Shown: positions 1-48,932, numbered from the stretch's first letter. The stretch is 64,000 nucleotides of DNA from Minisyncoccota bacterium (GCA_035524755.1 DATKOD010000003.1:2206-66205); one strand, 5' to 3'. Numbers and translations are program-made. The notes: generated from the sequence alone by a model not told the origin.

Positions 1-478
1 CGATGGGGAGCTTCTCCTTCTGGAGTTCCTCGACGGATTCGTAGCCGCGGCCCTTCTTGACCGTGAGTTCCATCTCCAGGGTCGTCTTCTTGTCGGTCAG
101 GGTGCAGATGTGCTGGGTCGGCGTGACGATGTCCACGTCGCTGGACGTGACGATGTCGGCCGCCGTGACCGCGCCCTCGCCCTTGGCCGACAGGGTCATG
201 ATGACCGGGTCGTTGGAGTACGAGCGGCAGCGGATCTTCTTGAGGTTCAGGATGATCTGGATGATGTCCTCCTGCACGCCGGCGATGGCGCCGTACTCGT
301 GGTCCACGCCCTTGATCTTGATGGACACGATGGCCGCCCCTTCCAGGGACGACAACAGGACGCGGCGCAGCGGGTTCGCCACGGTCGCGCCGAAACCCGG
401 CATCAGCGGACTGATGTCGAACACCGCGCGGTTCCCTTCCTTCTTCACTGCCTTGATGGGATCGGGGAGCTGGATCAT
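1..478 (-). CDS. rpoA: DNA-directed RNA polymerase subunit alpha, N-terminal ~159 codons (3' part beyond window start)
   Basis: Reverse-complement translation from ATG at ~478 reads MIQLPDPIKAVKKEGNRAVFDISPLMPGFGATVANPLRR..., a canonical RpoA N-terminus. There is no stop before position 1. It lies downstream of rpsD in the conserved S13-S11-S4-rpoA order. It is absent from the ORF track because it runs off the window edge. Confidence 0.85.
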   Translation of the reverse strand, partial: MIQLPDPIKAVKKEGNRAVFDISPLMPGFGATVANPLRRVLLSSLEGAAIVSIKIKGVDHEYGAIAGVQEDIIQIILNLKKIRCRSYSNDPVIMTLSAKGEGAVTAADIVTSSDVDIVTPTQHICTLTDKKTTLEMELTVKKGRGYESVEELQKEKLPI

Positions 479-567
479 TACGGGTGGAGCTTGTCGCGGT
501 GCGGACGCCAGATGAGGAGGTTACAGGTCGGTGGCTGGCGGCCGACAGCGCGATGAGCGCCGGTTAG

Positions 568-1209
568 TTAACGGGAATAGTATTCGATGATGGCCTGCAC
601 GTCGGCGGTCTGCACGCCCGACTCTTCCGGCACCGGTTCGCTTTTGACGGTGGCGGTCACTGCGGCGTGGTCAACGGACAGCCACGAAGGCGCGACGGTC
701 TTCGGGAACCAACGCGGCATCAGGGTCGAGAAATACGGCAGGGCTTTGGACTTCTCGCGGACACCGATGACGTCACCGATGCGGACGGTGATGGACGGGG
801 TTTTGGCGCGTGTGCCGTTCAGGGTGATGTGCCCGTGGTTGACCAGCTGGCGCGCCTGGTCGCGCGACTGCGCGACGCCCATGCGGAAGACGACGTTGTC
901 CAGGCGCGATTCCAGGGAGCGGATGACCGTGATGAACGGCGACGTCGCTTTGACCTCCAATGCGCGCTTCACCAGGGACTTCAGCGGCTTTTCGGTGAGG
1001 CGGTACATGGCGCGCACCTTCTGCTTGGAGCGCAGCTGCATGCCGAACTCGGACATCTTGCGGGGACGGCGGCTGGGGCCGTGCTGTCCCGGCGGGTACG
1101 GGCGGCGTACGATGGCCGCTTTGGGGCCGGCCGAACGCTCGCCCTTGAGGCCGAGTTTCTCGCCCAGGCGTCGTTCGATCTTCTCTTTTGGACCGGTGTA
1201 GCGTGACAT
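568..1209 (-). CDS. rpsD: 30S ribosomal protein S4
   Basis: 213 aa starting MSRYTGPKEKIERRLGEKL..., a typical S4 N-terminus and length. Confidence 0.95.
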   Translation of the reverse strand: MSRYTGPKEKIERRLGEKLGLKGERSAGPKAAIVRRPYPPGQHGPSRRPRKMSEFGMQLRSKQKVRAMYRLTEKPLKSLVKRALEVKATSPFITVIRSLESRLDNVVFRMGVAQSRDQARQLVNHGHITLNGTRAKTPSITVRIGDVIGVREKSKALPYFSTLMPRWFPKTVAPSWLSVDHAAVTATVKSEPVPEESGVQTADVQAIIEYYSR

Positions 1210-1211
1210 AG

Positions 1212-1640
1212 TTAGACGCGGCGGGGCTTCGGCGCGCGGACGCCGTTGTGCGGCACCGGTGTCGAATCCATGAGCGAAGTGATGTTCAGTCCCGTGCCGG
1301 CGGTGCCGCGGATGGCCGATTCACGCGCCGGACCGACGCCTTTGATGACGATGCGGGCGTTGGTGAGGCCGAAGCGCTTGGCCTTCTCGATGGCGTCCTT
1401 GGCGACGAGGTTCGCGGCGTACGGCGTGGTCTTCTTGGAGCCCTTGAACCCGAGCAGTCCCGCGCTGGAGAACGCGATGACGTTGCCCGTCAGGTCGGTG
1501 ACCGCGATGAGCGTATTGTTGTACGTGATCGTGATGTGCACGATCCCGTTGAGGACCTGCTTCTTGGCCGTCTTCTTGGGCGCCGCTGCGGCGGCTTCGG
1601 TCTGGTCCCCTTCCTTGGTGATGATGCGTTTCTTGCCCAT
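1212..1640 (-). CDS. rpsK: 30S ribosomal protein S11
   Basis: 142 aa. The core (NGIVHITITYNNT..ITD..GN....SAG..GFKGSKK.TPYAA) matches S11. A Lys/Ala-rich N-terminal extension is present. Confidence 0.95.
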   Translation of the reverse strand: MGKKRIITKEGDQTEAAAAAPKKTAKKQVLNGIVHITITYNNTLIAVTDLTGNVIAFSSAGLLGFKGSKKTTPYAANLVAKDAIEKAKRFGLTNARIVIKGVGPARESAIRGTAGTGLNITSLMDSTPVPHNGVRAPKPRRV

Positions 1641-1642
1641 GG

Positions 1643-2029
1643 TTATGTCTTGGCGTCGGACTTGATGCGGCCGGAGCCCATCGTCTTACGGACGTTGCCG
1701 CGGGTCGTGCGGCTGTTGGTGCGCGTGCGGCCGTGGACCGGCAGACGGCGCGCCAGGCGGAGCCCCTTCCAGGTGCCCAGTTCGCGGTTGTGCTTCTGGT
1801 TCGTAGCGACTTCCTTGCGCAGGTCCCCCTCGGTCTTGTAGTTCCGTTCGATGATCTTCTGGATCTTGCCCAGCTCTTCGGCGGTCAGGTCCTTGGCTTT
1901 CTTGTCGGGATCGATGCCGGCTGATTTCAAAATGATGGCCGCGTTCGACGGACCGATCCCGTAGAGGTACGGGAGGGAGAAGAGGATCTTCTTGTCGTCC
2001 GGGATTGTGACTCCGAAAATACGAGGCAT
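1643..2029 (-). CDS. rpsM: 30S ribosomal protein S13
   Basis: 128 aa starting MPRIFGVTIPDDKKILFSLPYLYGIG..., typical of S13. Confidence 0.95.
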   Translation of the reverse strand: MPRIFGVTIPDDKKILFSLPYLYGIGPSNAAIILKSAGIDPDKKAKDLTAEELGKIQKIIERNYKTEGDLRKEVATNQKHNRELGTWKGLRLARRLPVHGRTRTNSRTTRGNVRKTMGSGRIKSDAKT

Positions 2030-2039
2030 GAGCGTGGAA

Positions 2040-2153
2040 TTAGCCCTGACGCTGCTTATGTTTGGCGATGACGCACAGGCAATACAACCGCTTGCCGCGG
2101 CGTACGATCTTGCACTTCTTGCAAATGGGTTTTACGGATGCGCGGACTTTCAA
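2040..2153 (-). CDS. rpmJ: 50S ribosomal protein L36 (TTG start)
   Basis: Hand translation of the minus strand gives (M)[36 protein letters not shown], 37 aa, which is the L36 zinc-ribbon pattern. It is below the ORF-track size cutoff. The TTG start overlaps the infA stop. Confidence 0.8.
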
Positions 2154-2362
2154 TTGCGATATACGATGCGGCCGCGCGCACGGTCGGGAGAGACTTCGAT
2201 GGTGACCTTGTCTCCCACCAGGACCTTGATGTAGCGCAGGCGCATCTTCCCCGCCAAGTAGGCCAGCACTACGGTGCCGTCCTCGAGCTGGACGCGGAAG
2301 GTGGTGTCAGGGAGGGCCTCGATGACCGTCCCGACCGTCTTATCTTTCTTTTGGTCGTTCAA
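2150..2362 (-). CDS. infA: translation initiation factor IF-1
   Basis: 70 aa with an S1-like fold: [60 protein letters not shown]. Confidence 0.95.
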
Positions 2363-25335: not shown

Positions 25336-26097
25336 TCATTTCGCCAGTGCCGCGTCGATGACCTGCTGGAATGCGGCGAACGGCTGTGCACCGACCAGGG
25401 AGACGCCGTTGATGAAGAAACTCGGCGTTCCATCGACTCCCAATGCGGTACCGTCGGCTTGGTCCTTATCGACTTCGCTCGCGTATTTCTGTGAGTCCAG
25501 ACACTGATTGAATTTCGTCATATCCAGACCGATGTTCGAGACCCACGTCTTGATGTCGCTGACACTGAACGATACCGTCCCGCCGCTGGGGTCTTTGGCA
25601 TCCTGCCCCGCGAAGATCGCATCGTGGAACTGCCAGAACTTCCCCTGCTCCGCCGCACAGGCACCTGCCAGCGCGGCAGGGCGTGCAGAGGGATGCAGGC
25701 TGGTCAGCGGGAAATCACGGAAGACGAGGCGGACCTTGCCGGTATCGATATAGGTCTTCTTCAGCAGCGCGAAGGTGTCGTTGTAGAACGATCGGCAGTA
25801 CGGACACTGGAAATCACTGAACTCCACGATGGTCACCTTGGCGTCCGCATTCCCCAGGACCGGATCTTCACCGTCCTCAAGCTTGCTGGTATCGATCGGT
25901 GCGGCGGTTCCGTCCGCCTGCTGGGCAGGAGCAACGGACGGGCCGTGGAACAGCGATGCGGTACCGCCCGAACCGACGAACAGGACACTGGCTGCGATCA
26001 ACAGACCTGCGACGATGATGGCGCCCGGAACGGACATGAACGGTTGCTTCGGCTCCACCGGCTTCGGCTGCTCGCTGACCATCGGTTGTTCATCCAT
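25336..26097 (-). CDS. DsbA-family thiol:disulfide oxidoreductase (membrane-anchored)
   Basis: 253 aa with an N-terminal TM, the thioredoxin motif FSDFQCPYC, and a DsbA-like remainder. Confidence 0.85.
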   Translation of the reverse strand: MDEQPMVSEQPKPVEPKQPFMSVPGAIIVAGLLIAASVLFVGSGGTASLFHGPSVAPAQQADGTAAPIDTSKLEDGEDPVLGNADAKVTIVEFSDFQCPYCRSFYNDTFALLKKTYIDTGKVRLVFRDFPLTSLHPSARPAALAGACAAEQGKFWQFHDAIFAGQDAKDPSGGTVSFSVSDIKTWVSNIGLDMTKFNQCLDSQKYASEVDKDQADGTALGVDGTPSFFINGVSLVGAQPFAAFQQVIDAALAK

Positions 26098-26107
26098 GAA
26101 TGGAAAA

Positions 26108-26494
26108 TTAGGGTGTTACTGACGGCTTCGCTCCCAACGACAATGGGGCGACTTCCACGAGGATGTTCGCCACCGGGTCGTAGAGGATCCCGATCTGCGC
26201 CGTATTGTAGATGAGGACCTTGTCGCCGACTTTCGCATTCTTGAAGAATGGCTGGCCGGCGAGCTTTGACATGTCGGTGACCGTCGCGACCACGGGTGTC
26301 TCGCCGGTCGGCAGTGCGTACAACTTCCCGACGGCGGCCACCAGCCGTGAAACTTCATCGAGCGCCGCCTGTTGTGCATCAACCGGTTTCCGGCCCGACA
26401 CATACACGTACGATGCGGTGCCGACCGCAACGACGATCAGGACACCGGCACCGATGACGACGGGAAGTTTCATGGATGGCTTCCAGGATATCAT
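26108..26494 (-). CDS. membrane-anchored hypothetical protein (128 aa)
   Basis: Starts at MISWKPSMKLPVVIGAGVLIVVAVG; the ATG overlaps the VKOR stop (TGATG). The track ORF 26108..26806 extends 5' antisense into VKOR. Confidence 0.5.
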   Translation of the reverse strand: MISWKPSMKLPVVIGAGVLIVVAVGTASYVYVSGRKPVDAQQAALDEVSRLVAAVGKLYALPTGETPVVATVTDMSKLAGQPFFKNAKVGDKVLIYNTAQIGILYDPVANILVEVAPLSLGAKPSVTP

Positions 26495-26913
26495 CAGTCG
26501 CGTTTCATGACTACGATACCGAGTATCAACAGCGTGGTCGATGTGAGCGCCGAAAGCATGCAGTACTGGCAAAACGCGTGGAGGATGAATGCTTGGACGG
26601 CGACGAAATACAGCGTACCCAGGAAGCCCGCCACCGATAGCCATGCCGCACGGTGCAGGAACCGCCGGTCCCATGAATCGAAGTACATGACCAACAGAAC
26701 GATCATCGCACCGTAGAACAACAAGCCGGTGGCCGAAACCGGTACTGGACCGATGGATGAGAATCCGCTGGCAAGCACCGCCTCGCATCCCTTCAGGATG
26801 GTACACGGAGGAAGTATTCCGCGCACATGCTCGGCGGTCAGGTACGCGGAATCCGCGAACCCGATGAGGGCCGTGATGAACATCCCGATGACGATCGCTT
26901 TACTGATGCGCAT
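26494..26913 (-). CDS. vitamin K epoxide reductase (VKOR) family protein, a DsbB-equivalent
   Basis: 139 aa with 4 TM and the active-site CTILKGC (CxxC) loop, plus conserved Cys pairs. VKOR fills the DsbB role in several bacterial lineages (established knowledge). Confidence 0.8.
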   Translation of the reverse strand: MRISKAIVIGMFITALIGFADSAYLTAEHVRGILPPCTILKGCEAVLASGFSSIGPVPVSATGLLFYGAMIVLLVMYFDSWDRRFLHRAAWLSVAGFLGTLYFVAVQAFILHAFCQYCMLSALTSTTLLILGIVVMKRD

Positions 26914-27652
26914 TGAGCGGTTGCAAAACCTTCGCCTTGAAATCGTCGAAACTGGACGGTTGTGCCATCTGCGAACCGTTCACGAAGAACGTCGGCGTTC
27001 CGTTCACACCAGAAGACACCGCGCTGTCATAATCCGCATTGACCGCGGCGATGACCGGTGCGGAATCGATATCAGCGGTGAATTTCGTCACGTCCAAGCC
27101 GAGGCTTCCCGCGTATGAAATGAATTGCGCACGCGCCGCCGAAGCCGACAGATTCTCCCAGGTGGTTTGGGTATCGAACAGCTTGTCATGCATCTGCCAA
27201 AACTTCCCCTGTAACGACGCGGCCTGCGCCGCCTGGGCCGATTCCTGCGCGTTGGGATGGATATCCCGCAACGGGAAGTAGCGGTACACGAGACGGACCT
27301 TGCCCGCGACCTGCGGATCGGCAAGCAGTTGGTTCACGACCGGGTAATACGCGGCGCATGCCGGGCATTCGAAATCGCTGTACTCCAGAAGCGTGACCGA
27401 TGCACTGGCAGGACCGATACTGATATCGGACGCCGATACCGGCACCGAAAGCGTGCCGTTCGTGGTGGTCGTGGGAACGCTGCCCGCTGCGCGATACATC
27501 AACCAGCCGATGCCGACGAGCACCACCGCAACGATCGCCCACATGATGGAGCTTCGCACGATACGGCGACGCCGGTCTTGCTGCGACTGCATCTGACGCT
27601 CCTCGCGCCGCGCTTGCCGGCGCTCTTCTTTGCTCGATATCCGTCCGTCCAT
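26900..27652 (-). CDS. DsbA-family thiol:disulfide oxidoreductase, second paralog
   Basis: 250 aa with a TM anchor and the motif YSDFECPAC. Confidence 0.85.
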   Translation of the reverse strand: MDGRISSKEERRQARREERQMQSQQDRRRRIVRSSIMWAIVAVVLVGIGWLMYRAAGSVPTTTTNGTLSVPVSASDISIGPASASVTLLEYSDFECPACAAYYPVVNQLLADPQVAGKVRLVYRYFPLRDIHPNAQESAQAAQAASLQGKFWQMHDKLFDTQTTWENLSASAARAQFISYAGSLGLDVTKFTADIDSAPVIAAVNADYDSAVSSGVNGTPTFFVNGSQMAQPSSFDDFKAKVLQPLNAHQ

Positions 27653-29945: not shown

Positions 29946-29997
29946 GAAAACGGCCCCGGGGCGGTGAAGCCCCGAGGCCGGGAAGGAACGGAAGGAA

Positions 29998-32232
29998 CTA
30001 GCGGGCGCTGCAGGCGCAGCTGACGGTCAGCGACGCGTCATGCAACCAGGCCGCTTGGACGCCGCATGCCGTGCTGGTGGCGCTGTCGGTGAAGTCGTAC
30101 TCGTAGGTGGTCACGCCCGGGATGGAGCTCTGGTAGGTGGCATCGTCGCTGCCGTAGTAGTTGCTCCACTTGTAGTTGTTGTTGGAGTTGCCGTGGCGAT
30201 GCGGCGTGTCGCATTCGTGGTTGGGGCCGTCCTGCCAGGTTCCGCCGTCGGCCGTGCAGGCGTCTCGCGCATGGCTCGAGCTGTCGTGCATGTAGTACAC
30301 GTACTGCGTCGGTCCCGTCTGCGGGAGCTTGTAGAACGCGTAGAGCGTCTGGCTGTTGAAGCCCGTGAACGTGGCGCTCGCGCCGGGGCCCAGGTTGAAC
30401 GTGCCGTTCGGGATGATGCTGTCCGCGGGGTCGTCCTTGTTCGTGGCCACCACGATGGCGTACGTGACCTGGTCGCTCCGGTTGTTCTTCAGGGTCCAGG
30501 TGTTGACCTTCGGGCAGTCCTGCGGCGGGATCGCGATGCTGTAGGTGTGGTCGTAGCTCTTCGTGCACTGCAGCTCCGACGGGCCATAGCTGACCACCTC
30601 GGTGTAGACGTCCGAGAAGGTGAAGGTCGAGCCGTAGGCCGGGCGGTTCACCACCTTGGGCAACGGATCGGACCACGTGCCGCCCGACGGGCGAACCGTA
30701 CCGCTGGTCACCTTCTCGGTGGTCGCGGTCTTGTCGGTGAGGTCGAGGTCACCACGGAAGTCCGGCGGGGTCGGCGTGTAGTCGGCACAGGTCTTGGTGC
30801 GCGGCGGGATGACCACGGGCGTCGTCACCGGACAGGTCAGCGAACCGCGAACGACCGTCAGAGTCGCGGTGAGGGTCTGCTGGCTGTCGGTCTGAGCGTA
30901 GCCGTGCGTCACGTTGAACGGATTGTTCTCGTTGTCGGACGCTCCGTCGCCGTATGCCAGCGACCCGGTGCCGGGGTTCACCCAGCTGCCATGGAGGCCG
31001 ACGTTGTACGTGCTCGCGATGCTGGCACGCACCGACTTGGCGTGCACCGAGTCCGCCCCCACCGTGTAGGTGCTCAGCTGCGGGTTCACGTCTCCGCATG
31101 TCGGGTCCTTCGCGGGCACCGTCTTGGTGAAGGGCTTGGAGACCGTGCACTTGAGGTTGTCCGGGCCGTAGCTCTTCGTGTAGGTGTCGCTGAAGGAGGC
31201 GTCCGGCTGTCCGAAGTTCGGACGATTGACCGTCGCCGGAAGCGCGGTGGACCACGTGCCGCCCGTCGGAGCGACCGTGCCGGCGTCGAACGTGTAGCTC
31301 GACGGTCCGGGGGTCACGCCCAGGTCACCCGTGATGGTCGGCGGGGTGTAGTCCTTGCAGGTGGGGTTCGTGCCGACCGTGACGGTGATGGACGGGTCGC
31401 ACTCCACACCGCCGCCGGTGAGCTTCAGCTTGATGGTGAACTTCTGCTGCGGCTCGGCGGGGTACGTGTGGCTCACGGGGACACCGTTGGTCGCCGATGA
31501 GGTCGTGTTGTCGCCCCAGTCGAGGACGCCATTGATCTTGGTGTCGCCGACCTTGTGGTTGAACTTCGGCGTGACCGTGATCGTGGTGCCGTCCTGCGTG
31601 TACGTGAGCGATCCGTTGATGGTCTCGCAGGTCACGCAGGGCTCGGGGTAGTTGAACACCACCCCGAACGGCCACCTCACCTCGTCGGTCGCATTCTTGA
31701 AGAGGCCGTCGTGCTGGTCCATGCCGCAGGAGTTGACGCTCACGTCCCACTGCGTCGTGAGCTTGACGCCCACGGTGGACGCCTTGAACGTCAGGTGGTC
31801 GTTCTGGTCGGCCCCGTTGCCGGAGCCGGCCGAACCGCAGCTGTTCTCGGGGGCGTGGAACGCGCCTGAGCGCAGCCATCCGTCCGAGGCGCTGATGATG
31901 CCCCAGGTGACGGTGTACTTCTTCGACGCGGTCACGACCTGGCAGCGGTTGTCGAGCAGATCGAGGTTCGTATCGAGCACGCAGAACGTCAGGGTCTTGT
32001 CGCGAGAGCTGACCGTCTCCTTGCCCTCGCAGATGCCGGAGCCGGTGACCGTCTGGCCCGTGCCGGATGCCGGAGGCGCCGGGACGGACGCGTTGGAACC
32101 GCTCGTGGCGGGGGCCTCGGAGACGACACTCGGGGAGGTGGACGTGTCGCCGCCCTTGTTGCAGGCGACGGGAACGAGGCAGACCGCCGTCACGACGGCG
32201 GCGATGCCCAGGAACGTCATCAATCGACGCAT
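29998..32232 (-). CDS. large Cys-rich lipoprotein with two internal ~100-aa repeats, hypothetical
   Basis: 744 aa. Signal peptide plus lipobox (LVPVAC). Two paralogous modules (TCKDYTPPTITGDLG... and TCADYTPTPPDFRGDLD...). More than 30 Cys. The segment has extreme GC with open frames on all strands. Confidence 0.75.
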   Translation of the reverse strand: MRRLMTFLGIAAVVTAVCLVPVACNKGGDTSTSPSVVSEAPATSGSNASVPAPPASGTGQTVTGSGICEGKETVSSRDKTLTFCVLDTNLDLLDNRCQVVTASKKYTVTWGIISASDGWLRSGAFHAPENSCGSAGSGNGADQNDHLTFKASTVGVKLTTQWDVSVNSCGMDQHDGLFKNATDEVRWPFGVVFNYPEPCVTCETINGSLTYTQDGTTITVTPKFNHKVGDTKINGVLDWGDNTTSSATNGVPVSHTYPAEPQQKFTIKLKLTGGGVECDPSITVTVGTNPTCKDYTPPTITGDLGVTPGPSSYTFDAGTVAPTGGTWSTALPATVNRPNFGQPDASFSDTYTKSYGPDNLKCTVSKPFTKTVPAKDPTCGDVNPQLSTYTVGADSVHAKSVRASIASTYNVGLHGSWVNPGTGSLAYGDGASDNENNPFNVTHGYAQTDSQQTLTATLTVVRGSLTCPVTTPVVIPPRTKTCADYTPTPPDFRGDLDLTDKTATTEKVTSGTVRPSGGTWSDPLPKVVNRPAYGSTFTFSDVYTEVVSYGPSELQCTKSYDHTYSIAIPPQDCPKVNTWTLKNNRSDQVTYAIVVATNKDDPADSIIPNGTFNLGPGASATFTGFNSQTLYAFYKLPQTGPTQYVYYMHDSSSHARDACTADGGTWQDGPNHECDTPHRHGNSNNNYKWSNYYGSDDATYQSSIPGVTTYEYDFTDSATSTACGVQAAWLHDASLTVSCACSAR

Positions 32233-32307
32233 GCGTCCTCCAAACGGCGAACAAACGTCATTCGCCTTGATTTACCTATGTTTTACGGATTGTCAAAAAA
32301 CACCTCG

Positions 32308-32361
32308 GGCCAACGATTGGCCGGCGAATATAATACAGGTGTTGACACAAAAAGTCAACAC
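32308..32361. promoter_or_regulatory. two perfect inverted repeats in the divergent promoter region (GGCCAACGATTGGCC; GTGTTGAC-n7-GTCAACAC overlapping a TTGACA -35), candidate operator sites
   Basis: Palindromes lie between the lipoprotein start (32232, minus) and the AI-2E transporter start (32379, plus). TATACT follows 19 nt after TTGACA. Confidence 0.4.
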
Positions 32362-42104: not shown

Positions 42105-42716
42105 CTACTTTTTCCGGAAAACGAACACCCGGAATCCCGTGAACGAGAAGATGAGCGCGACCGCGGAACCGACGACTGCACCGACGCCGGCCCATGCGGC
42201 CGTCGTGAATCCGGCCGGGCGGAGCGCGATGGTGATTGATGCTGCCGCGACGTTCACCAACACTGACGCGAGCGCGACCACGAGGAACCGCCCGATCTCA
42301 CCTGAGCCGCCCCGCGCTGAATCTTGGAATGCCCAGATCTTGTTCCAGAAATAGCTGTGAACGGTCGCAACACTGAATGAAAGGGTCTTGAACAGCGCGT
42401 ACGCGATGCCCGTGCTCAGACCGGTCAGCGCGATGAGCAGATACAGCACCCCGAAGTCCACGAGGGCATTGGCGAATCCGATGGCGGCGAACCGGCCGAA
42501 CTGCACGAACGGCTTGAACCACACCCCGAGGATATATCCCAGCTGCACGCCCAGGATCCAAAGGATGGGCACGAGCCAGATGAGTACCGAGGTGTTGATG
42601 CCCAACGGCAGCGACTTCCCCAAATACCGCAGGATGGCATCTGCGATGATCCCGGTGGTCAGACCGGTGATGAGTCCGTAGACGACATCTCTTCCTGATA
42701 CGATACGCATTGACAT
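42105..42716 (-). CDS. GtrA-family membrane protein
   Basis: 203 aa with 4-6 TM and a GtrA-like pattern. Confidence 0.6.
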   Translation of the reverse strand: MSMRIVSGRDVVYGLITGLTTGIIADAILRYLGKSLPLGINTSVLIWLVPILWILGVQLGYILGVWFKPFVQFGRFAAIGFANALVDFGVLYLLIALTGLSTGIAYALFKTLSFSVATVHSYFWNKIWAFQDSARGGSGEIGRFLVVALASVLVNVAAASITIALRPAGFTTAAWAGVGAVVGSAVALIFSFTGFRVFVFRKK

Positions 42717-42719
42717 ACG

Positions 42720-45149
42720 TTAGGTGGTACGTTCGAAGCGCTGCCGGATTTCTGATTCCACTTCTTCCCGCGGACGACCGAATTTCGCATGGCTGGATTC
42801 GATGATGGCATCGCGAACGGCCGGATCGCCTTTCGCCAGTCCGATCTCCGCGAGACCGCGCATGCTCGTAGGCCGCGCAACCTGACTGTTCACCAGCATG
42901 GATACATACGCATGGAAATTATCGATGTTGGAAACATCGTACGGAGAGAACACCGGTTCGAACTTCGTCTTCAGGAGCGGCATCTCGGCATCCTCCGGAC
43001 TGACACGGTACACCACCATGGTGCCGACGTTGCCGAAGACCGAATCGCGGATGGCGTCGTCAAGCTGCTTGATGAACTGATGCGCCATGATGAGACATAG
43101 GCGATACTTCCGGGCTTCCGCGAGGATGACCGAAATGGAATCCGTCGTGAAGTTCTGGAATTCATCCATATACAGATAGTGATCGGGCAGGTCAGCGCGT
43201 TTCGTATCGCGCGCCAATGCCGCACGGCGTAGTTTGCCGGTGATGACCATGCCCAACAGGTTCGCGTTCATATCACCGATCTTCCCTTTCGACAGGTTAC
43301 AGATAAGTATCTTCCGGTTCTCGATGACATCCCTGAAATCGATGACGCTCGTCTGTTGGTTCACGATGGGCCGCAGAAAATCATTGGACGTGAACGTATC
43401 GATCTTGCTGGTGACATATCCGGCGAAATTCGCCAGCGACTGGTCGCCGGTCATCTTCGTGGCTTCCAATTCCCAGAACTGCTTCACGACCGTGTTGGAC
43501 TCGTGCGCCAATAGGTCATTGCGGAATGCCTCGTCGACGAACACCCGTGACATGTCGGCCAGCGTCGGTACCCGCCGCTCGTAGTTATCGAGCAACAGGT
43601 ATGTCGCATTCTTGAAATACCGCTCGAACATCGGTCCGCCGGTCTCCTTGAGGTCGTACAGCTTCGACATGATCTCGAATAATTCGTCGATGATGAGCGT
43701 TTTATCCTGCGGATTGGACGGGTCGAACTCGAGCATGTTCAATCCCAGCGGGAACGACGTATCGCCGGGGTTGAAATAGATGACGTCGTCGATCCGTTCC
43801 TTCGGGACGTTCGCTAACACCCACTCCGCGAACGAGCCGTGCGGATCCAGTACCGTAATGCCGTCCCCCGACTCCAAATCCTGGGGTATCATCGACTGCA
43901 TCGTGACCGTTTTTCCGGTTCCGGTCTGTCCGATGATGTACATATGACGCCGACGGTCTTCGCGCGCGATGCGAAGCAGCGTCGACTGGCCCCGGTATTC
44001 GTTCATGCCGAACGCGATGCCATGCTCGGGAAGACCCGGTGGCGGCTCGGCCGTCTTGAAATTCACGAACTTGACCTTCGGCATGACCGCCATGCCGGTG
44101 GGAAAGTGGTACACGCTGGTAAGTTCCTCCGCCGACAGCGTGACCGTCTGAGCGTCATCGAACAGGCGAAAGGCGAATTCGAATTCCAACCGCTCCAACG
44201 CCTTGCCGGACAGTTTCTTCACGTTGAATCCGTTCCGGTCAGCCGTCGTATATTGCGAGAACGCGCCGGCGACATCGTTCATGATGGCATCCGCACGTTC
44301 CGGTGAGGACGATGAGGCGAGGATGCGAATGTTGCAGTCGAACAGCGGGCGTGATGCCTTGGACTGCAACGCGGTGATGAGTTTCTGTTCGAATTCGGTG
44401 GCGACCTTCGGCGGTTCTTTGAGCGCGGCGTCCGAGTCTCTCTTTTCATCCTTCTTCGGCGGATGCTGGGCGAGTTTGAGCGCTTTATGGAAATCATTGC
44501 CCGCCTGCATCTGACGTGCGGTATCGGACGCGAGTTTCCGGATCCCGGCATGCGACGACGGCCGGACCGCGATCTGGATGGCGACACCTTCGCCCTCCTT
44601 CTCGATCCTGCCCATCGCGCTCACCAGCGGACCGAGCGGATCGCTGGGCAGCTCGGTATAGGTCAGTACCGGCAGGATGGGATCCTCACGCTGGGTCAGG
44701 TAGGCGCCCGCCGAGCCGCCCTGCGGATTGAAAATGTTGTAATCCGGGCTCCGTTGAACGGTGGCGGTCGGAAACACGCCGACCATCTGCTTCTCGAACT
44801 GATCAGCGAACTTCGACGGCACCGCGGCGTAGAAATGGATCTGCTCGCCGATATGGTGCACCGCCATTTCCAGCACCAGGTACGGATCGCCGAACAGGAA
44901 CTTGTTCCACCCTTTGATCTTCAGGTTTGCCACCGACGCATACAACTGCTCCATGACCGCGATGAGTTTGCGTTCGTCCTTCTCCCCTCCCTCGGCGGCG
45001 AACCGCGGCAGAAGGAACAGCAGCAGCTGCATGTCCAGAGAACGCGACAACGACGTACGCGAACGGAGACCGTTGACGACGATCAACGCGGCGACGGCCA
45101 GAATGACCGCGACCAACGCCAAGAGTACAAGCGTGATGACGGGCGACAT
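42720..45149 (-). CDS. membrane-anchored AAA-like ATPase of the VirB4/TraC/HerA (DUF87) superfamily
   Basis: 809 aa with an N-terminal TM. Walker A (IIGQTGTGKT) at ~residue 405, Walker B (LYMDEFQNF), and a HerA/VirB4-like AEARKYRLCLIMAHQFIKQL motif. It has a ~380-aa non-ATPase N-terminal region. Confidence 0.7.
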   Translation of the reverse strand: MSPVITLVLLALVAVILAVAALIVVNGLRSRTSLSRSLDMQLLLFLLPRFAAEGGEKDERKLIAVMEQLYASVANLKIKGWNKFLFGDPYLVLEMAVHHIGEQIHFYAAVPSKFADQFEKQMVGVFPTATVQRSPDYNIFNPQGGSAGAYLTQREDPILPVLTYTELPSDPLGPLVSAMGRIEKEGEGVAIQIAVRPSSHAGIRKLASDTARQMQAGNDFHKALKLAQHPPKKDEKRDSDAALKEPPKVATEFEQKLITALQSKASRPLFDCNIRILASSSSPERADAIMNDVAGAFSQYTTADRNGFNVKKLSGKALERLEFEFAFRLFDDAQTVTLSAEELTSVYHFPTGMAVMPKVKFVNFKTAEPPPGLPEHGIAFGMNEYRGQSTLLRIAREDRRRHMYIIGQTGTGKTVTMQSMIPQDLESGDGITVLDPHGSFAEWVLANVPKERIDDVIYFNPGDTSFPLGLNMLEFDPSNPQDKTLIIDELFEIMSKLYDLKETGGPMFERYFKNATYLLLDNYERRVPTLADMSRVFVDEAFRNDLLAHESNTVVKQFWELEATKMTGDQSLANFAGYVTSKIDTFTSNDFLRPIVNQQTSVIDFRDVIENRKILICNLSKGKIGDMNANLLGMVITGKLRRAALARDTKRADLPDHYLYMDEFQNFTTDSISVILAEARKYRLCLIMAHQFIKQLDDAIRDSVFGNVGTMVVYRVSPEDAEMPLLKTKFEPVFSPYDVSNIDNFHAYVSMLVNSQVARPTSMRGLAEIGLAKGDPAVRDAIIESSHAKFGRPREEVESEIRQRFERTT

Positions 45150-45550
45150 CAGGGAGCGGGCTCAACCTTCCGGCGTTCCAGCAGTTGCGAGTGGAATTCA
45201 TCGGCGAGCACGTCGTGCAGTGCATCGATGAGCGCGGGATTGCCGGAAGCGACAGCCTGGTCGATGGCGGCCTGCAGGCTCTGCGTGAACACCACGTTCA
45301 CCAGTTGCTGCACCGGGCCGGCCAACGCCGGGTCCTGCCAGCTCGGCGTGCCTGCCACGGGTTGCGATGCCGCTGGCGCCGGTTGGTAGTTCGGCACTGA
45401 CTGTTGGATGCGTTCGCCGACCGCCTCATGCACTTCTGCCCGTTCATACGGCGTCGATGCGTCAGCGCCCAGCTCCGCGCGTTTCTCCTGGAGCCTGCGT
45501 TCCAGGTCTGCGATCTCCGTCTCGATCGGACCGGTGGTGTTCTCAGCCAT
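45149..45550 (-). CDS. hypothetical protein (~133 aa)
   Basis: Its stop overlaps the ATPase start (ATGA). No recognised domain. Confidence 0.45.
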   Translation of the reverse strand: MAENTTGPIETEIADLERRLQEKRAELGADASTPYERAEVHEAVGERIQQSVPNYQPAPAASQPVAGTPSWQDPALAGPVQQLVNVVFTQSLQAAIDQAVASGNPALIDALHDVLADEFHSQLLERRKVEPAP

Positions 45551-45581
45551 GCACATCCATTGTAGCACACCCCGTGCTACA

Positions 45582-47144
45582 ATGAAGCCAATGAAGCGTA
45601 ACGAATTGCTGGTCTTGCTGTTGATCCTTGCGATCGCAAGTTGGTTCCGGCTCGCCGGTCTTCACGACACGCCGCCCGGGCTCTACCCGGACGAAGCCAT
45701 GGTCGGCAACGAGGCTATCAATGCGTGGAACACGAAGACGTTCTCCGTCTTCTACCCGTACAACAACGGAGAAGAAGGCCTGTACGCCGATATCGCATCG
45801 ATCCCAATCCACTTTCTCGGCAATACGGCCTTTTCGCTCCGGCTCGTGTCAGCCATCGCAGGCATCCTGACGGTCCTTGGCGTCTATCTTCTGGCGCGGC
45901 GGATGTTCGACTCGTGGGAGCTCGCCGCGATGGCCGCATTTTTCTTGGCGACCGGTTTTTGGCATGTGAATTTCTCACGTATCGGGTTCCGCGCCATTCT
46001 GGCACCGATGTTCGCCGTATGGGGATTCTATGAACTCTATAAGGGCCTGGAGACCAACCGGATATGGCATTGGGTGTTGGCGGGTGTCTCGTTCGGTTTG
46101 GGCATGTACACCTACATCGCGTTCCGCGTGATGCCGTTGGCCATCCTCTTGGTGTTGGGGGCATACTGGCTTGCCCTCAGTGCGGCGTTCTCGCACGGAA
46201 AGTTCGCCTTCGTCCGACATCAGCTTGCCGGCGGTGTGGCGGCGATGATCGGTGTCGGGATCCTGGTCTGTCTGCCGATCGCCGCATATTTCGTCGGTCA
46301 TCCGGCTGACTTCGTCGGACGCACATCGCAGATTTCCGTATTCAGCACGTCCAATCCCGTGATGACCGTCGCCGTCAATACGGTGAAGACGCTCGGCATG
46401 TTCTTCCTGGCTGGTGATTCCAACTGGCGTCATAACATCTCTGGCGCGCCTATCCTGTTCTGGCCGGTCGCCGCGCTCTTCGCCGCGGGTCTCGTGCACA
46501 CGCTTTGGCGGTTCTATGATTCGTGGCGTAAGCGGGGACATCCTGGCGTGGTACAGACACTTCTCCTGTCGTGGTTCCTCATCGGCCTTATCCCTGAAAT
46601 CTTCTCCAATGAGGGGATCCCCCATGCGTTGCGTTCCATCATTGACGCTCCCGTGGTCGCCATCATTTCTGCCGTCGGGCTGCACTGGCTGACCGTGTGG
46701 CTACGGAAATGGTATGCCATGCGTGACACGCACAAGATTTGTCTGCCCGGCCCCCGCGGCCACCGCTGGTGTGTCGGTGAGGGTTCGTTGGTCGTCGGCA
46801 TCTCCGTCATCTCGCTGTTGTTCGCAATCGGTGTCGCCGAAGCGAACCGCTATTTCGTGACGTGGGCGCAGGATCCGAACGTGCCGGGTGCATTCAACGA
46901 GAACTACGCGGACATCGCACGCCACATCAACAGTCTGCCCCCCGCAACACTGAAATACGTCATCGTCAATGCCGGTGGAGTGCTCGTCAATGGCATCCCG
47001 ATGCCCGCACAGACCGTCATGTACCTGACGGATACGTGGACTCCCGCGGATCAGGCGGCACATCACGTGGTCTATCTCCTGCCCGAACAGGTCGCGTCCA
47101 CACGCATCCCCCGTGGCGCTGCCGTGTTTTCCATCGATCCATAG
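45582..47144 (+). CDS. GT39-family glycosyltransferase (PMT/ArnT-like, polyprenyl-phosphate-sugar dependent)
   Basis: Start at MKPMKRNELLVLLLILAIASWFRLAG. Multi-TM, with the DE-like motif YPDEAM in the first loop. Confidence 0.8.
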   Translation: MKPMKRNELLVLLLILAIASWFRLAGLHDTPPGLYPDEAMVGNEAINAWNTKTFSVFYPYNNGEEGLYADIASIPIHFLGNTAFSLRLVSAIAGILTVLGVYLLARRMFDSWELAAMAAFFLATGFWHVNFSRIGFRAILAPMFAVWGFYELYKGLETNRIWHWVLAGVSFGLGMYTYIAFRVMPLAILLVLGAYWLALSAAFSHGKFAFVRHQLAGGVAAMIGVGILVCLPIAAYFVGHPADFVGRTSQISVFSTSNPVMTVAVNTVKTLGMFFLAGDSNWRHNISGAPILFWPVAALFAAGLVHTLWRFYDSWRKRGHPGVVQTLLLSWFLIGLIPEIFSNEGIPHALRSIIDAPVVAIISAVGLHWLTVWLRKWYAMRDTHKICLPGPRGHRWCVGEGSLVVGISVISLLFAIGVAEANRYFVTWAQDPNVPGAFNENYADIARHINSLPPATLKYVIVNAGGVLVNGIPMPAQTVMYLTDTWTPADQAAHHVVYLLPEQVASTRIPRGAAVFSIDP

Positions 47145-47147
47145 CCC

Positions 47148-48932
47148 ATGCGAAAATTCCTGACGCCTGCCGCAGCTGCGCTCTGTATCGTCATCGTCGC
47201 CACCGTACTGGCGATCCTGTCATCACGGGATGATGCACCCATCGTCGACGAGGTCCCGCACATCGGCGCCGGATATTCGTACGTGAGTCAGTTGGACTAC
47301 CGGCTCAATCCTGAACACCCGCCGTTGGTCAAGGACATCGCCGGATTTTCGGTCTCATTGTTGCACGTACCCGCATCAGTGTTCATGACGACGATGTGGA
47401 TGAACGATGTGAACGGGCAGTGGGAATTCGGCCGCAATCTCATTTTCCATTCCGGTTTGAATGCCGACGCCGTCAAGACGTTCGCGCGCACACCGGAAAT
47501 GATCTTCTTCCTGGTCGCATGCTGGATCGTGTGGCGGTGGATGTCGGAACGTTACAGCAAGGGTACGGCACTCCTGGCGGTCACGTTGTTGGCGTTCTCG
47601 CCGACCGTGTTGGCACATGCGCGCCTGGTGACCACCGATATGGCTGCGGCGACCGGTGCGGTCCTGGCGACGTATTTCTTCGTGCGGTTCCTCCGTCGTC
47701 CCGGCGCCTGGCCGTTCGTCTGGTCCACATTGACATTAGGCATCGCGCTGGTATGTAAATTCAACGATGCGCTTTTGGGACCGTTTTTCCTGCTTGTCGC
47801 GTTCCTCTGGGGACTGGACGGTCACATCGGTTCCTCACGCGCGTGGAAGAACGCAGCGCGTATGGTCGGGTATGCTGTCGCGATCGGCGCCGCATCGTTC
47901 ATTCTCTTCGTCTGGCCGCTGTACATCGTCCAGACGCTCCATGAGCCGATCGCGAAACAGCACGCCGATACCATCGCCATCCTCGGCGCGCATCCGACCG
48001 GCATCCTGCAGAAAGCCGTCGTCTGGGCGTCCGATAAACCCATCATCCGTGCCGCGGGCCACTGGGGTCTAGGACTATCGATGGTCGCTCAGCGCGAATC
48101 GGGCGGCAACACCATCTATTGGATGGGTCGAGTGGTCACCAGCGGCGGAGTCTGGTACTTCCCCATCATCTATCTCCTCAAAGAGCCGATCGCCTGGTGG
48201 ATTTTGATGGCATTTGCCGTCACTGCGTTTGCCTTCCATAGACGCCGCCACGCCGGCGAACCGAAGAACGGCACCTGGTGGGCACGGAATGCCGACGAAT
48301 GGGTGTGGGTTCTGTGGCTCATCATCTATTGGGCGGTATCCATGCAGAGCACGCTGAACATCGGCATCCGGCATCTATTGCCGGTCTATCCGTTCACCAT
48401 CATGCTGGTCGCCGGGCGCATCGGTGTCATGAATGACTGGCTGCGCCGTCACAACCCGGACATGGTCAAGCTGTTCACCGTCACTATCGGGCTGTTGGTC
48501 GGCTGGTATGTCTTCGAATCCGTGAGTGTGTATCCGTTCTACCTGACGTATTTCAACCAGATCGCCGGCGGACCGTCGGGTGGCTACCGGTATGTGACGG
48601 ATTCGAACCTGGACTGGGGGCAAGACATCAAACGCCTTGGTATCTACGTGGACGATAACCGTATCCGCGCAGTATCGCTGGACTATTTCGGATGGTCGGA
48701 CCCCTCCTACTATCTGGGATCTAAGTATGTTTGGACGACCGGTTCGGATTGGAAAGATGCGAAGGATTTCATCCGGCGGAACCGCTCCGACGGTTGGATC
48801 GCCGTGTCCGCGACATTCTTCCAGGAATCCGTCTTCCGTGCCGACGGCCAGGGCGCGTACCGATGGCTTTTGGATTACACGCCCGTCACCGTCATCGGCC
48901 ATTCCATCTTCGTCTGGCATATCACGAAGTAA
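47148..48932 (+). CDS. GT39-family glycosyltransferase, second paralog
   Basis: 594 aa, multi-TM, with an early DE motif (VDEVPH). Adjacent to the first paralog. Confidence 0.8.
   Translation: MRKFLTPAAAALCIVIVATVLAILSSRDDAPIVDEVPHIGAGYSYVSQLDYRLNPEHPPLVKDIAGFSVSLLHVPASVFMTTMWMNDVNGQWEFGRNLIFHSGLNADAVKTFARTPEMIFFLVACWIVWRWMSERYSKGTALLAVTLLAFSPTVLAHARLVTTDMAAATGAVLATYFFVRFLRRPGAWPFVWSTLTLGIALVCKFNDALLGPFFLLVAFLWGLDGHIGSSRAWKNAARMVGYAVAIGAASFILFVWPLYIVQTLHEPIAKQHADTIAILGAHPTGILQKAVVWASDKPIIRAAGHWGLGLSMVAQRESGGNTIYWMGRVVTSGGVWYFPIIYLLKEPIAWWILMAFAVTAFAFHRRRHAGEPKNGTWWARNADEWVWVLWLIIYWAVSMQSTLNIGIRHLLPVYPFTIMLVAGRIGVMNDWLRRHNPDMVKLFTVTIGLLVGWYVFESVSVYPFYLTYFNQIAGGPSGGYRYVTDSNLDWGQDIKRLGIYVDDNRIRAVSLDYFGWSDPSYYLGSKYVWTTGSDWKDAKDFIRRNRSDGWIAVSATFFQESVFRADGQGAYRWLLDYTPVTVIGHSIFVWHITK

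Follow-up and report, generated by a model that had tools for sequence, protein, structure and literature searches.

The gene at positions 29998..32232 on the minus strand of a 64,000-nucleotide stretch of Minisyncoccota bacterium DNA (GCA_035524755.1 DATKOD010000003.1:2206-66205; "the window" below refers to this whole stretch) likely encodes a major cell-surface lipoprotein, serving as a coat and/or in attachment, of a soil-dwelling Candidatus Paceibacterota, a lineage of the candidate phyla radiation (CPR). In the same, joint reading, we take the gene to be native, its inheritance to be vertical, and its expression to be very high; its extreme GC content at third codon positions (GC3) would reflect native high-expression codon choice and not foreign origin. 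Judging from its sequence, the product is probably among the most abundant cell-surface proteins of this uncultivated bacterium. NCBI lists the identical protein, annotated as hypothetical (VMU12_00590), in a metagenome-assembled genome (MAG) of a "Candidatus Paceibacterota bacterium".

Codon usage, genomic context, and origin of the gene

The 744-aa open reading frame (ORF) that an earlier note on this DNA had picked out is real, and together with its stop codon it forms a complete coding sequence. Its GC content, which the note called extreme, is 0.66 compared with approximately 0.60 for the window; that wording is too strong for the gene as a whole, the excess being almost entirely confined to third codon positions. 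GC1, GC2, and GC3 are 0.52, 0.53, and 0.926, respectively, with first and second positions not raised, and the third positions comprise 428 C (57%), 261 G, 37 T, and 18 A. The other confirmed genes of the window have GC3 values of 0.61–0.85, which makes the gene a clear outlier in the window, as the note had claimed. When amino acid composition is controlled for, GC3 at synonymous positions (GC3s) is 0.924 versus 0.746 expected (z = 11.5), the next most deviant genes being those for SerRS (z = 4.8) and ribosomal protein S4 (z = 3.4). A GC3 of 0.93 eliminates stop codons, and as a result both strands carry long spurious ORFs across the gene, reaching 486 aa (e.g., 30040-31500, plus strand, and 31325-32254, minus strand), which could mislead gene callers. 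The note had spoken of long ORFs in five other frames; ORFs of 100 aa or more are in fact confined to three, and only two of the alternative frames come close to being free of stops, containing 2 and 3 of them.

The left end of the window (1-2362, minus strand) carries an infA-rpmJ-rpsM-rpsK-rpsD-rpoA cluster, in which rpoA runs off the edge. GC3 is high in this cluster with the exception of rpmJ (infA, 0.82; rpmJ, 0.71; rpsM, 0.845; rpsK, 0.895; rpsD, 0.846; rpoA fragment, 0.943), and GC-ending codons are therefore preferred in the highly expressed genes of this genome. Plus-strand ORFs at 57-515 and 1248-1841 are antisense artifacts of the cluster genes. The per-codon shifts of our gene from background correlate with those of the ribosomal and RNA polymerase (RNAP) genes, a small reference set of approximately 750 codons (r = 0.71, p = 4e-10), and the correlation persists among GC-ending codons alone (r = 0.53, p = 0.003). 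An index of the codon adaptation index (CAI) type, derived from the same reference, reaches 0.708 and ranks the gene first among 40, the next value being 0.579 and the mean 0.482 ± 0.054. The bias is even along the whole gene, and stretches with 100% identity from strain to strain show it too. The earlier note had offered strong codon bias for high expression and horizontal acquisition as alternative explanations; the parallel with ribosomal and RNAP genes supports the former, and the extreme GC3 would then be the translational-optimality signature of this genome.

Database searches indicate a rare family. Pfam and NCBIfam scans of the full protein gave no match at E ≤ 1, and here the earlier note, which had recognized no family, was right. 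Only five relatives came out of a word-indexed search of 5.8 billion clusters, and repeating it with an alignment of 29 family sequences gave the same six proteins and nothing more; the word index appears to saturate for low-complexity Thr/Ser-rich proteins. An exhaustive profile search of 1.84 billion representatives retrieved 130 proteins at E ≤ 1e-3, 59 at E ≤ 1e-10, and 24 at E ≤ 1e-30. Approximately 60 of these are clear representatives of the family, and the weaker matches are giant, genuine PKD-repeat proteins that align only over the module A region described below. Among GTDB species representatives, a tighter, B-domain alignment gave two matches, both to Paceibacterota MAGs of a soil MAG catalogue. 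A metagenome pattern scan added one further contig (L011), which belongs to the same species as locus L009 and carries no new allele of the N-terminal domain. All named relatives come from Paceibacterota. The family is thus a small one, and its named records do not extend beyond this CPR lineage.

The genomic context was compared in six other genomes or strains (L001, L002-L005, L006, L007, L009 (= L011), and L010), with the downstream gene order followed as far as each contig reaches. A near-identical strain, L008, is represented by a short contig without a complete neighboring gene. Five of the six (L001, L002-L005, L006, L009/L011, and L010) share the slot seen in the window, with a divergently oriented AI-2E transporter gene upstream and a MOFRL glycerate-kinase-like gene, a 2-hydroxyacid dehydrogenase gene, and a DsbA-VKOR-DsbA set downstream; the L007 homolog has different neighbors. 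The homologs have higher GC3 than their neighbors, with values of 0.76 versus 0.49–0.68 in L001, 0.90 versus 0.71–0.79 in L002, 0.91 versus 0.78–0.81 in L006, 0.89 versus 0.63–0.72 in L007, and 0.93 versus 0.75–0.84 in L009; in L010, the homolog has approximately 0.84 and its neighbors mostly 0.6–0.8, with one at 0.82. These genomes span 55–64% GC, and the distant proteins are just 31–42% identical to ours. Since the GC3 excess is kept over such divergence at a fixed location, it is not an un-ameliorated foreign signature.

The gene is flanked by the following signals:

32330..32358, minus strand: promoter-like site, sigma-70-type TTGACT-17-TATTAT, 10 of 12 consensus matches
32237..32241, minus strand: Shine-Dalgarno sequence GGAGG, 4 nt upstream of the ATG at 32232
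29951..29980, minus strand: intrinsic terminator, located 18 nt past the stop codon; its 12-bp stem contains 11 G-C pairs and runs into TTTTCTT

The presence of its own promoter-like site, Shine-Dalgarno sequence, and terminator indicates a monocistronic unit, and these signals suggest high expression independently of codon usage. One promoter-like site was found compared with 0.2 expected from shuffles. The site overlaps an inverted repeat, GTGTTGAC-N7-GTCAACAC, at 32339-32361 (minus strand), and both the TTGAC...GTCAA repeat and the -10 region are conserved in L009 and L002/L003. The repeat, of the general form TTGAC-N7-9-GTCAA, overlaps the -35 element (32339-32361 in the window, ~6500-6540 in L009, and ~20-60 in L002) and lies within the 146-bp divergent intergenic region that the gene has in common with the AI-2E gene; it could serve as an operator. 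A short GC hairpin, different in sequence from locus to locus, is present at the predicted mRNA 5′ end in each locus. The predicted 5′ untranslated region of approximately 90 nt is 100% identical in strain L008, folds no better than shuffled sequences (z = -0.23), and has no match in Rfam.

Two other explanations of the GC3 excess were weighed against high expression of a native gene. Recent horizontal acquisition from a higher-GC donor, the excess being an un-ameliorated foreign signature, would account for a GC3 of 0.926 next to neighbors at approximately 0.75, for an overall GC of 66% versus 60%, and for the lack of an annotated family. It is nevertheless extremely improbable: there is no rise in GC1 or GC2, a single slot between housekeeping-type genes harbors the gene in all but one of the compared contexts, the excess persists in the distant homologs, the codon preferences track those of the resident ribosomal and RNAP genes, the named relatives are all Paceibacterota, and no mobile-element genes or tRNA-type insertion signatures were found among the annotated neighbors. 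Hence, although the composition of the gene is atypical, as in a genomic island, its location is conserved and its codon usage is resident-like. The second explanation, in which GC-biased gene conversion at a recombination hotspot produced most of the excess and high expression is not needed, fits the fact that the locus recombines (see below), and is in keeping with a GC3 higher than in several ribosomal genes and with use of GAG, AAG, and AGC beyond the level of the ribosomal set. Avoidance of CGG was considered as a discriminator between selection and gene conversion and was dropped; it is clean in the window gene but was not reproduced in four of six loci (pooled 0.216 versus 0.289, p = 0.15). 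What held across homologs was the depletion of GGG, which is itself GC-ending (pooled 0.107 versus 0.177, p = 0.0013). This depletion argues against gene conversion, as do the ribosomal and RNAP genes, which are not expected hotspots and show a bias of the same size and direction with GC3 of up to 0.94, the correlation that remains among GC-ending codons, the uniformity of the bias along the gene, and the promoter, Shine-Dalgarno, and terminator signals. We therefore regard gene conversion as the main cause as improbable.

Domain architecture, predicted lipid anchor, and predicted disulfide bonds

From the N to the C terminus, the protein consists of a signal peptide, Cys24, a linker, a variable N-domain, modules A1 (PKD), B1, A2 (PKD-like), and B2, and a C-terminal sandwich, encoded as follows:

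32161..32232, minus strand: signal peptide (aa 1-23) with lipobox-like PVAC, Cys24 being the predicted lipidation site
32032..32160, minus strand: low-complexity linker rich in Ser/Gly/Thr/Pro/Ala by composition (aa 25-67, 43 residues), predicted disordered, pLDDT 25-30
31636..32031, minus strand: N-domain (aa 68-199), beta-sandwich with 6 Cys, pLDDT ~80
31360..31635, minus strand: module A1 (aa 200-291), divergent PKD domain with the motif LDWGDNT...VSHTY
31096..31359, minus strand: module B1 (aa 292-379), ~88 aa, C-x5-P...RP...YGP..L.C...C, beta-sandwich, pLDDT 80-90
30790..31095, minus strand: module A2 (aa 380-481), PKD-like, weak paralog of A1, with the motif WVNPGTGSLAYGDG...THGY
30514..30789, minus strand: module B2 (aa 482-573), second copy of the B domain
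30001..30513, minus strand: C-terminal domain (aa 574-744), beta-sandwich core, ending in C-x-C

The protein is rich in Thr (14%), Ser (9.3%), Gly (8.9%), Val (8.3%), and Asn (5.4%), and the earlier description of it as Asn/Thr/Gly-rich and probably beta-rich agrees with these values and with the structural model. An AlphaFold2 model based on a six-sequence alignment is all-beta, with predicted local distance difference test (pLDDT) scores of 70–90 for aa 62-380 and 481-572; the C-terminal domain is likewise modeled as all-beta, with a pLDDT of 80. Module A2 is modeled poorly, just its last three strands being predicted. The N-domain, of which 24 homologs were found, has a conserved framework (CG..PG / CG..Q.D / C..C), and the C-terminal domain carries an insertion of approximately 70 aa, rich in His, Tyr, Trp, and Cys, at roughly aa 640-710.

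The internal duplication that the earlier note had seen as two paralogous modules of ~100 aa is real, but the unit is larger. B1 (aa 291-379) and B2 (aa 481-573) share 45% identity (E = 1e-23), and a weaker paralogy also links A1 and A2 (24% identity, E = 4e-6), so that what was duplicated is a two-domain, A+B module of approximately 190 aa. The copies resemble each other at the DNA level only in short patches (35 nt at 89%), and the orthologs in L008 and L009 share the duplicated layout, which excludes a duplication introduced by assembly.

The B domain occurs in 81 copies in 52 proteins, with invariant Cys residues, and none of 32 copies examined has a match in Pfam. The B, N, and C domains represent three undescribed domain families that are absent from Pfam. 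A PKD beta-sandwich fold is seen in the model. The protein scores below every Pfam PKD threshold (PF00801 / PF18911) with no match at E ≤ 1; relatives P0013 and P0018 reach 21.1 and 22.9 bits, respectively, compared with a cut-off of 27. When the full-length model was compared with the PDB by Foldseek, nothing beyond generic multi-Ig/MG/FN3 strings emerged (TM-score ~0.1). Profile searches of the PDB with the family and C-domain alignments yielded, apart from noise, a single match (E = 0.21) to the lipoprotein signal region of the Gram-positive PstS 4gd5.

A membrane protein of ~200 aa with an HExxH motif is encoded directly downstream of the homolog, on the same strand, in L001 (3688-4284), L002 (1895-2482), and L006 (2135-2752), its only Pfam signal being a sub-threshold one to Peptidase_M48 (17 bits). 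Neither the window nor L009 has this gene, the gap to the MOFRL gene being only 52–62 bp. Fusion of this downstream gene into the C-terminal domain of our protein was considered and rejected, BLASTP giving no significant similarity.

The N terminus, MRRLMTFLGIAAVVTAVCLVPVAC, has positive residues, a hydrophobic stretch, Cys24, and then the Ser/Thr/Pro/Gly/Ala linker. The segment preceding Cys24, MRRLMTFLGIAAVVTAVCLVPVA, comprises a positive n-region and a hydrophobic h-region, a layout that is shared with the relatives. An equivalent Cys at position +1 is found in 40 of 47 relatives, and most of the others are N-terminally truncated. Across these 40, position -1 is A (35) or G (5), position -2 is V/W/A/T/I/G, and position -3 is V/F/A/L/T/I; the conserved Cys is followed by G/N/S/T and then a low-complexity linker. 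We infer lipid modification of the protein most strongly from this conservation. Compared with [LVI][ASTVI][GAS]C, P-V-A-C fits at -1, -2, and +1 and fails at -3, where it has Pro. Hence, the VPVAC lipobox named in the earlier note stands as regards the signal peptide and the conserved Cys24, whereas its Pro is non-canonical and the site is better called a relaxed lipobox. Position -3 would also fail the PROSITE pattern PS51257.

The protein contains 22 Cys residues (3.0%), fewer than the "dozens" announced before, and 20 of them are in the mature chain (2.8%). They sit at module boundaries. When the lipobox Cys is left out, the count is even in 28 of 34 family members (p = 2e-4), including ours with 20, a pattern that fits a secreted, fully disulfide-bonded protein with predicted disulfides. 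Genes for a possible oxidation system lie nearby:

25336..27652, minus strand: DsbA (25336-26097), VKOR (26494-26913), and DsbA (26900-27652), the first and last identified by Pfam and the second as a VKOR ORF

In many bacteria without DsbB, DsbA-VKOR-DsbA serves to form disulfides outside the cytoplasm. The set is found near the homolog in the window, L001, L002, and L010, and from this proximity it is a candidate dedicated oxidative-folding system for the protein.

Exchange of the N-domain between strains

Comparison with the near-identical strain L008 revealed replacement of a defined part of the gene. Outside this part, the locus, including the 5′ untranslated region and the 3′ flank, is 98–100% identical at the DNA level. 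In the cassette, at approximately 31650-32030 (aa 68-195), DNA identity drops to 48–61%, with indels, and a small second divergent patch is found at the extreme 3′ end. At the protein level, the N-domains are 35% identical, whereas A1 and B1 are 100% identical and the remainder approximately 100%. Synonymous divergence (dS) is 0.77 in the N-domain compared with 0.015 elsewhere, which indicates that a divergent allele was imported by recombination and did not arise by faster evolution in place.

The N-domain of L008 (P0002) is 68% identical to that of the distant relative P0005, the B domain of which is only 40% identical, and N-domain and B-domain identities are thus incongruent for this pair. 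The sister species (L009 = L011; L009 6621-8855) carries a third N-domain allele, giving three alleles in a close clade. The imported cassette has the codon bias of the rest of the gene; therefore, the donor was a homologous, similarly biased gene. Variation on a larger scale is seen across the family, in which the numbers of A and B modules vary, at least five unrelated types of C-terminal domain occur, and some members have DUF11.

The 64-kb window contains no silent cassettes, paralogs, or second copy of the cassette region. A diversity-generating retroelement was considered as the source of variation and rejected: no reverse transcriptase was found among the annotated ORFs and no template repeat or second copy in the window, and the alleles differ at approximately 50% of DNA positions, with indels and saturated dS.

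Proposed role and comparison with known surface proteins

In the mechanism that we propose, the precursor would be exported by Sec, the signal peptide removed, and Cys24 lipid-modified, which would anchor the protein in the cytoplasmic membrane. The flexible linker of ~43 residues, rich in Ser/Thr/Pro, would span the wall, and beyond it would extend a ~76-kDa rod of six beta-sandwich modules, stapled by up to ten disulfides that the nearby-encoded DsbA/VKOR proteins may form. Displayed at high density, the protein could act as a surface coat and/or attachment structure. Surface exposure would create a diversifying pressure, met by recombinational replacement of whole domains, namely of the N-domain between strains and of terminal domains and module number between species.

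Several observations weigh against this reading. The lipobox is non-canonical at -3 in our protein (Pro) and at -2 in eight relatives (Trp), and Pfam scans of ORFs in the window turned up neither Lgt nor LspA. The swapped N-domain is membrane-proximal, which is unexpected if the distal tip alone is exposed, and no fold match points to a specific ligand. The proximity of DsbA/VKOR could be mere lineage synteny, and the set is absent in L007. As regards expression, the overshoot for GAG, AAG, and AGC and the irreproducible depletion of CGG leave translational selection not cleanly separated from recombination-associated GC enrichment, and high expression is itself deduced from codon usage and sequence signals. 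The Saccharibacteria/TLR2 paper does not serve as evidence for CPR lipoproteins, its lipoprotein data concerning the actinobacterial host.

Other roles for the product have to be considered with these points in mind. If the protein were no lipoprotein, signal peptidase I would cut before Cys24, and the protein would be released or retained non-covalently. The irregular lipobox and the absence of lgt and lspA from the window would suit such processing, and VPVA|C, with V-x-A before the Cys, also resembles an A-x-A-type signal peptidase I site; a substrate of this enzyme, however, needs no Cys after the A/G, and its retention in 40 of 47 very divergent relatives is a hallmark of lipoprotein precursors. 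The even count of the remaining Cys residues implies that this one has no role in disulfides, and the sole PDB sequence match is to a lipoprotein signal region. On balance, we find processing by signal peptidase I improbable. About as improbable, if not slightly more so, is a nutrient- or glycan-capturing surface lipoprotein of the SusE/SGBP kind or like abundant substrate-binding lipoproteins. The layout of a lipid anchor, Ig/PKD spacers, and a distal beta-sandwich would be SGBP-like, the aromatic/His-rich insertion of the C-terminal domain could form a carbohydrate-binding surface, and one passage of a CPR source describes these bacteria as dependent on scavenging (PMC5220378). The matches obtained are nonetheless to generic PKD/Ig spacers and not to binding sites, no SusC/D-type or ABC transporter gene is adjacent (the neighbors being AI-2E, MOFRL, and dehydrogenase genes), and a conserved nutrient-binding function would less typically go with wholesale swapping of N- and C-domains among close relatives than antigenic or receptor variation would.

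A strict S-layer protein, that is, an N-terminally lipid-anchored, disulfide-stabilized lattice subunit of the paracrystalline coat reported for CPR cells, is unlikely but deserves more attention. Bacterial S-layer proteins are typically weakly acidic, with masses of 40–170 kDa, pI values of 4–6, and few or no sulfur-containing residues (PMC4232325). The predicted mass of 76 kDa and pI of 5.06 fall within these ranges, and the 20 Cys residues of the mature chain do not fit. A lipid anchor is known from the Haloferax S-layer glycoprotein (PMC4232325), whereas the anchor predicted here is N-terminal. The gene is a single-copy one at a conserved locus, and the proxies that bear on abundance are the first rank in the CAI-type index, the ribosomal-like GC3, and the strong promoter, Shine-Dalgarno, and terminator signals. 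S-layer cassette types are mentioned for Clostridioides difficile (PMC6254364), and the strain-level replacement of a presumably exposed part would resemble them. The envelope composition of CPR bacteria is called unclear or poorly understood in one passage of the source cited above (PMC5220378). On the other hand, Pfam and NCBIfam reveal no SLH, CWB2, or other known wall-binding or lattice domain, and a string of beta-sandwiches suits a fibrillar adhesin equally well. With the same reserve, and as an unlikely outcome, one may picture a new S-layer-type envelope coat of soil Paceibacterota with an N-terminal lipid tether in place of a wall-binding domain, rigidity conferred by ~10 disulfides made via DsbA/VKOR, and antigenic diversification, by cassette exchange of the N-domain and swapping of the C-head, under pressure from phages or from recognition of host cells in episymbiosis.

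For the preferred reading of a major surface lipoprotein, the closest known architecture is, by analogy, that of the Leptospira LigA/LigB-type adhesins, which combine a lipobox, tandem bacterial Ig-like domains, and a unique C-terminal domain. Like these, our protein has a lipoprotein signal, a rod of duplicated beta-sandwich modules, and a distinct C-terminal domain and would be displayed on the surface for adhesion. Unlike these, it has no match to Big_2 or another Pfam Ig family, its modules are PKD-like or of the undescribed B type and are predicted to be stapled by Cys residues, its codon bias equals that of ribosomal genes, its N-domain is exchanged as a cassette, and the organism is a monoderm-type CPR bacterium. 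PKD domains occur in bacterial proteases, archaeal S-layer proteins, and Bacteroides SGBPs, and such modules are thus a further feature shared with some archaeal S-layers. Recombinational switching of S-layer cassettes is known from Clostridioides difficile. The modules studied here differ from Pfam PKD domains in being sub-threshold and in having an extra predicted disulfide, and only two of the six modules are of the PKD type.

Variable surface lipoproteins are also known from Mollicutes and Borrelia (Vsp/Vlp, VlsE, and OspC). The shared traits would be an abundant lipoprotein coat on a genome-reduced, host-dependent bacterium and a conserved signal/lipobox and 5′ region next to a variable, exposed domain that is exchanged by recombination. 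In contrast to these systems, there is no multigene family, silent cassette, or phase-variation repeat in the 64-kb window, the variation is found between strains and not within the genome, and the fold is all-beta, modular, and predicted to be disulfide-rich. Bacteroidota SusE/F and SGBP-B differ from our protein in their envelope type and in having a polysaccharide-utilization locus with SusC/D neighbors, in place of which AI-2E, MOFRL, 2-hydroxyacid dehydrogenase, and DsbA/VKOR genes are found here; no CBM family was detected in our protein.

Two other regions of the window encode proteins of possible relevance to the cell surface. A 925-aa ORF at 61207-63984 (minus strand) is rich in Gly (21.5%) and in Thr, Ala, and Ser, has GGxGxG-like repeats and no Pfam match, and shows an unusual GC1/2/3 pattern of 0.56/0.65/0.71; from its composition, it may be another large surface or fiber protein. 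The region 42105-48932 contains a GtrA-like gene, a gene resembling those of type IV secretion coupling proteins (TrwB/DUF87), and two PMT_2 (protein O-mannosyltransferase/ArnT-like) genes. That glycosyltransferases from this region might O-glycosylate Ser/Thr-rich linkers such as aa 25-67 of our protein is pure speculation.

Modular Ig/PKD surface lipoproteins are a known kind of protein, but this family, its N, B, and C domains, and its behavior have not been described before. The gene illustrates that strong codon bias linked to expression can exist even in an ultra-small CPR genome, and in such genomes a comparison with ribosomal genes should precede any reading of a GC3 outlier as horizontal transfer. 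It also documents how a presumed surface domain is replaced as a cassette from strain to strain, a mark of arms races with hosts or phages. The composition of the CPR envelope and the molecules of host contact are described as largely unknown in a passage of PMC5220378, and the lipoprotein presented here would provide a testable candidate for a dominant surface protein of a soil Paceibacterota lineage.

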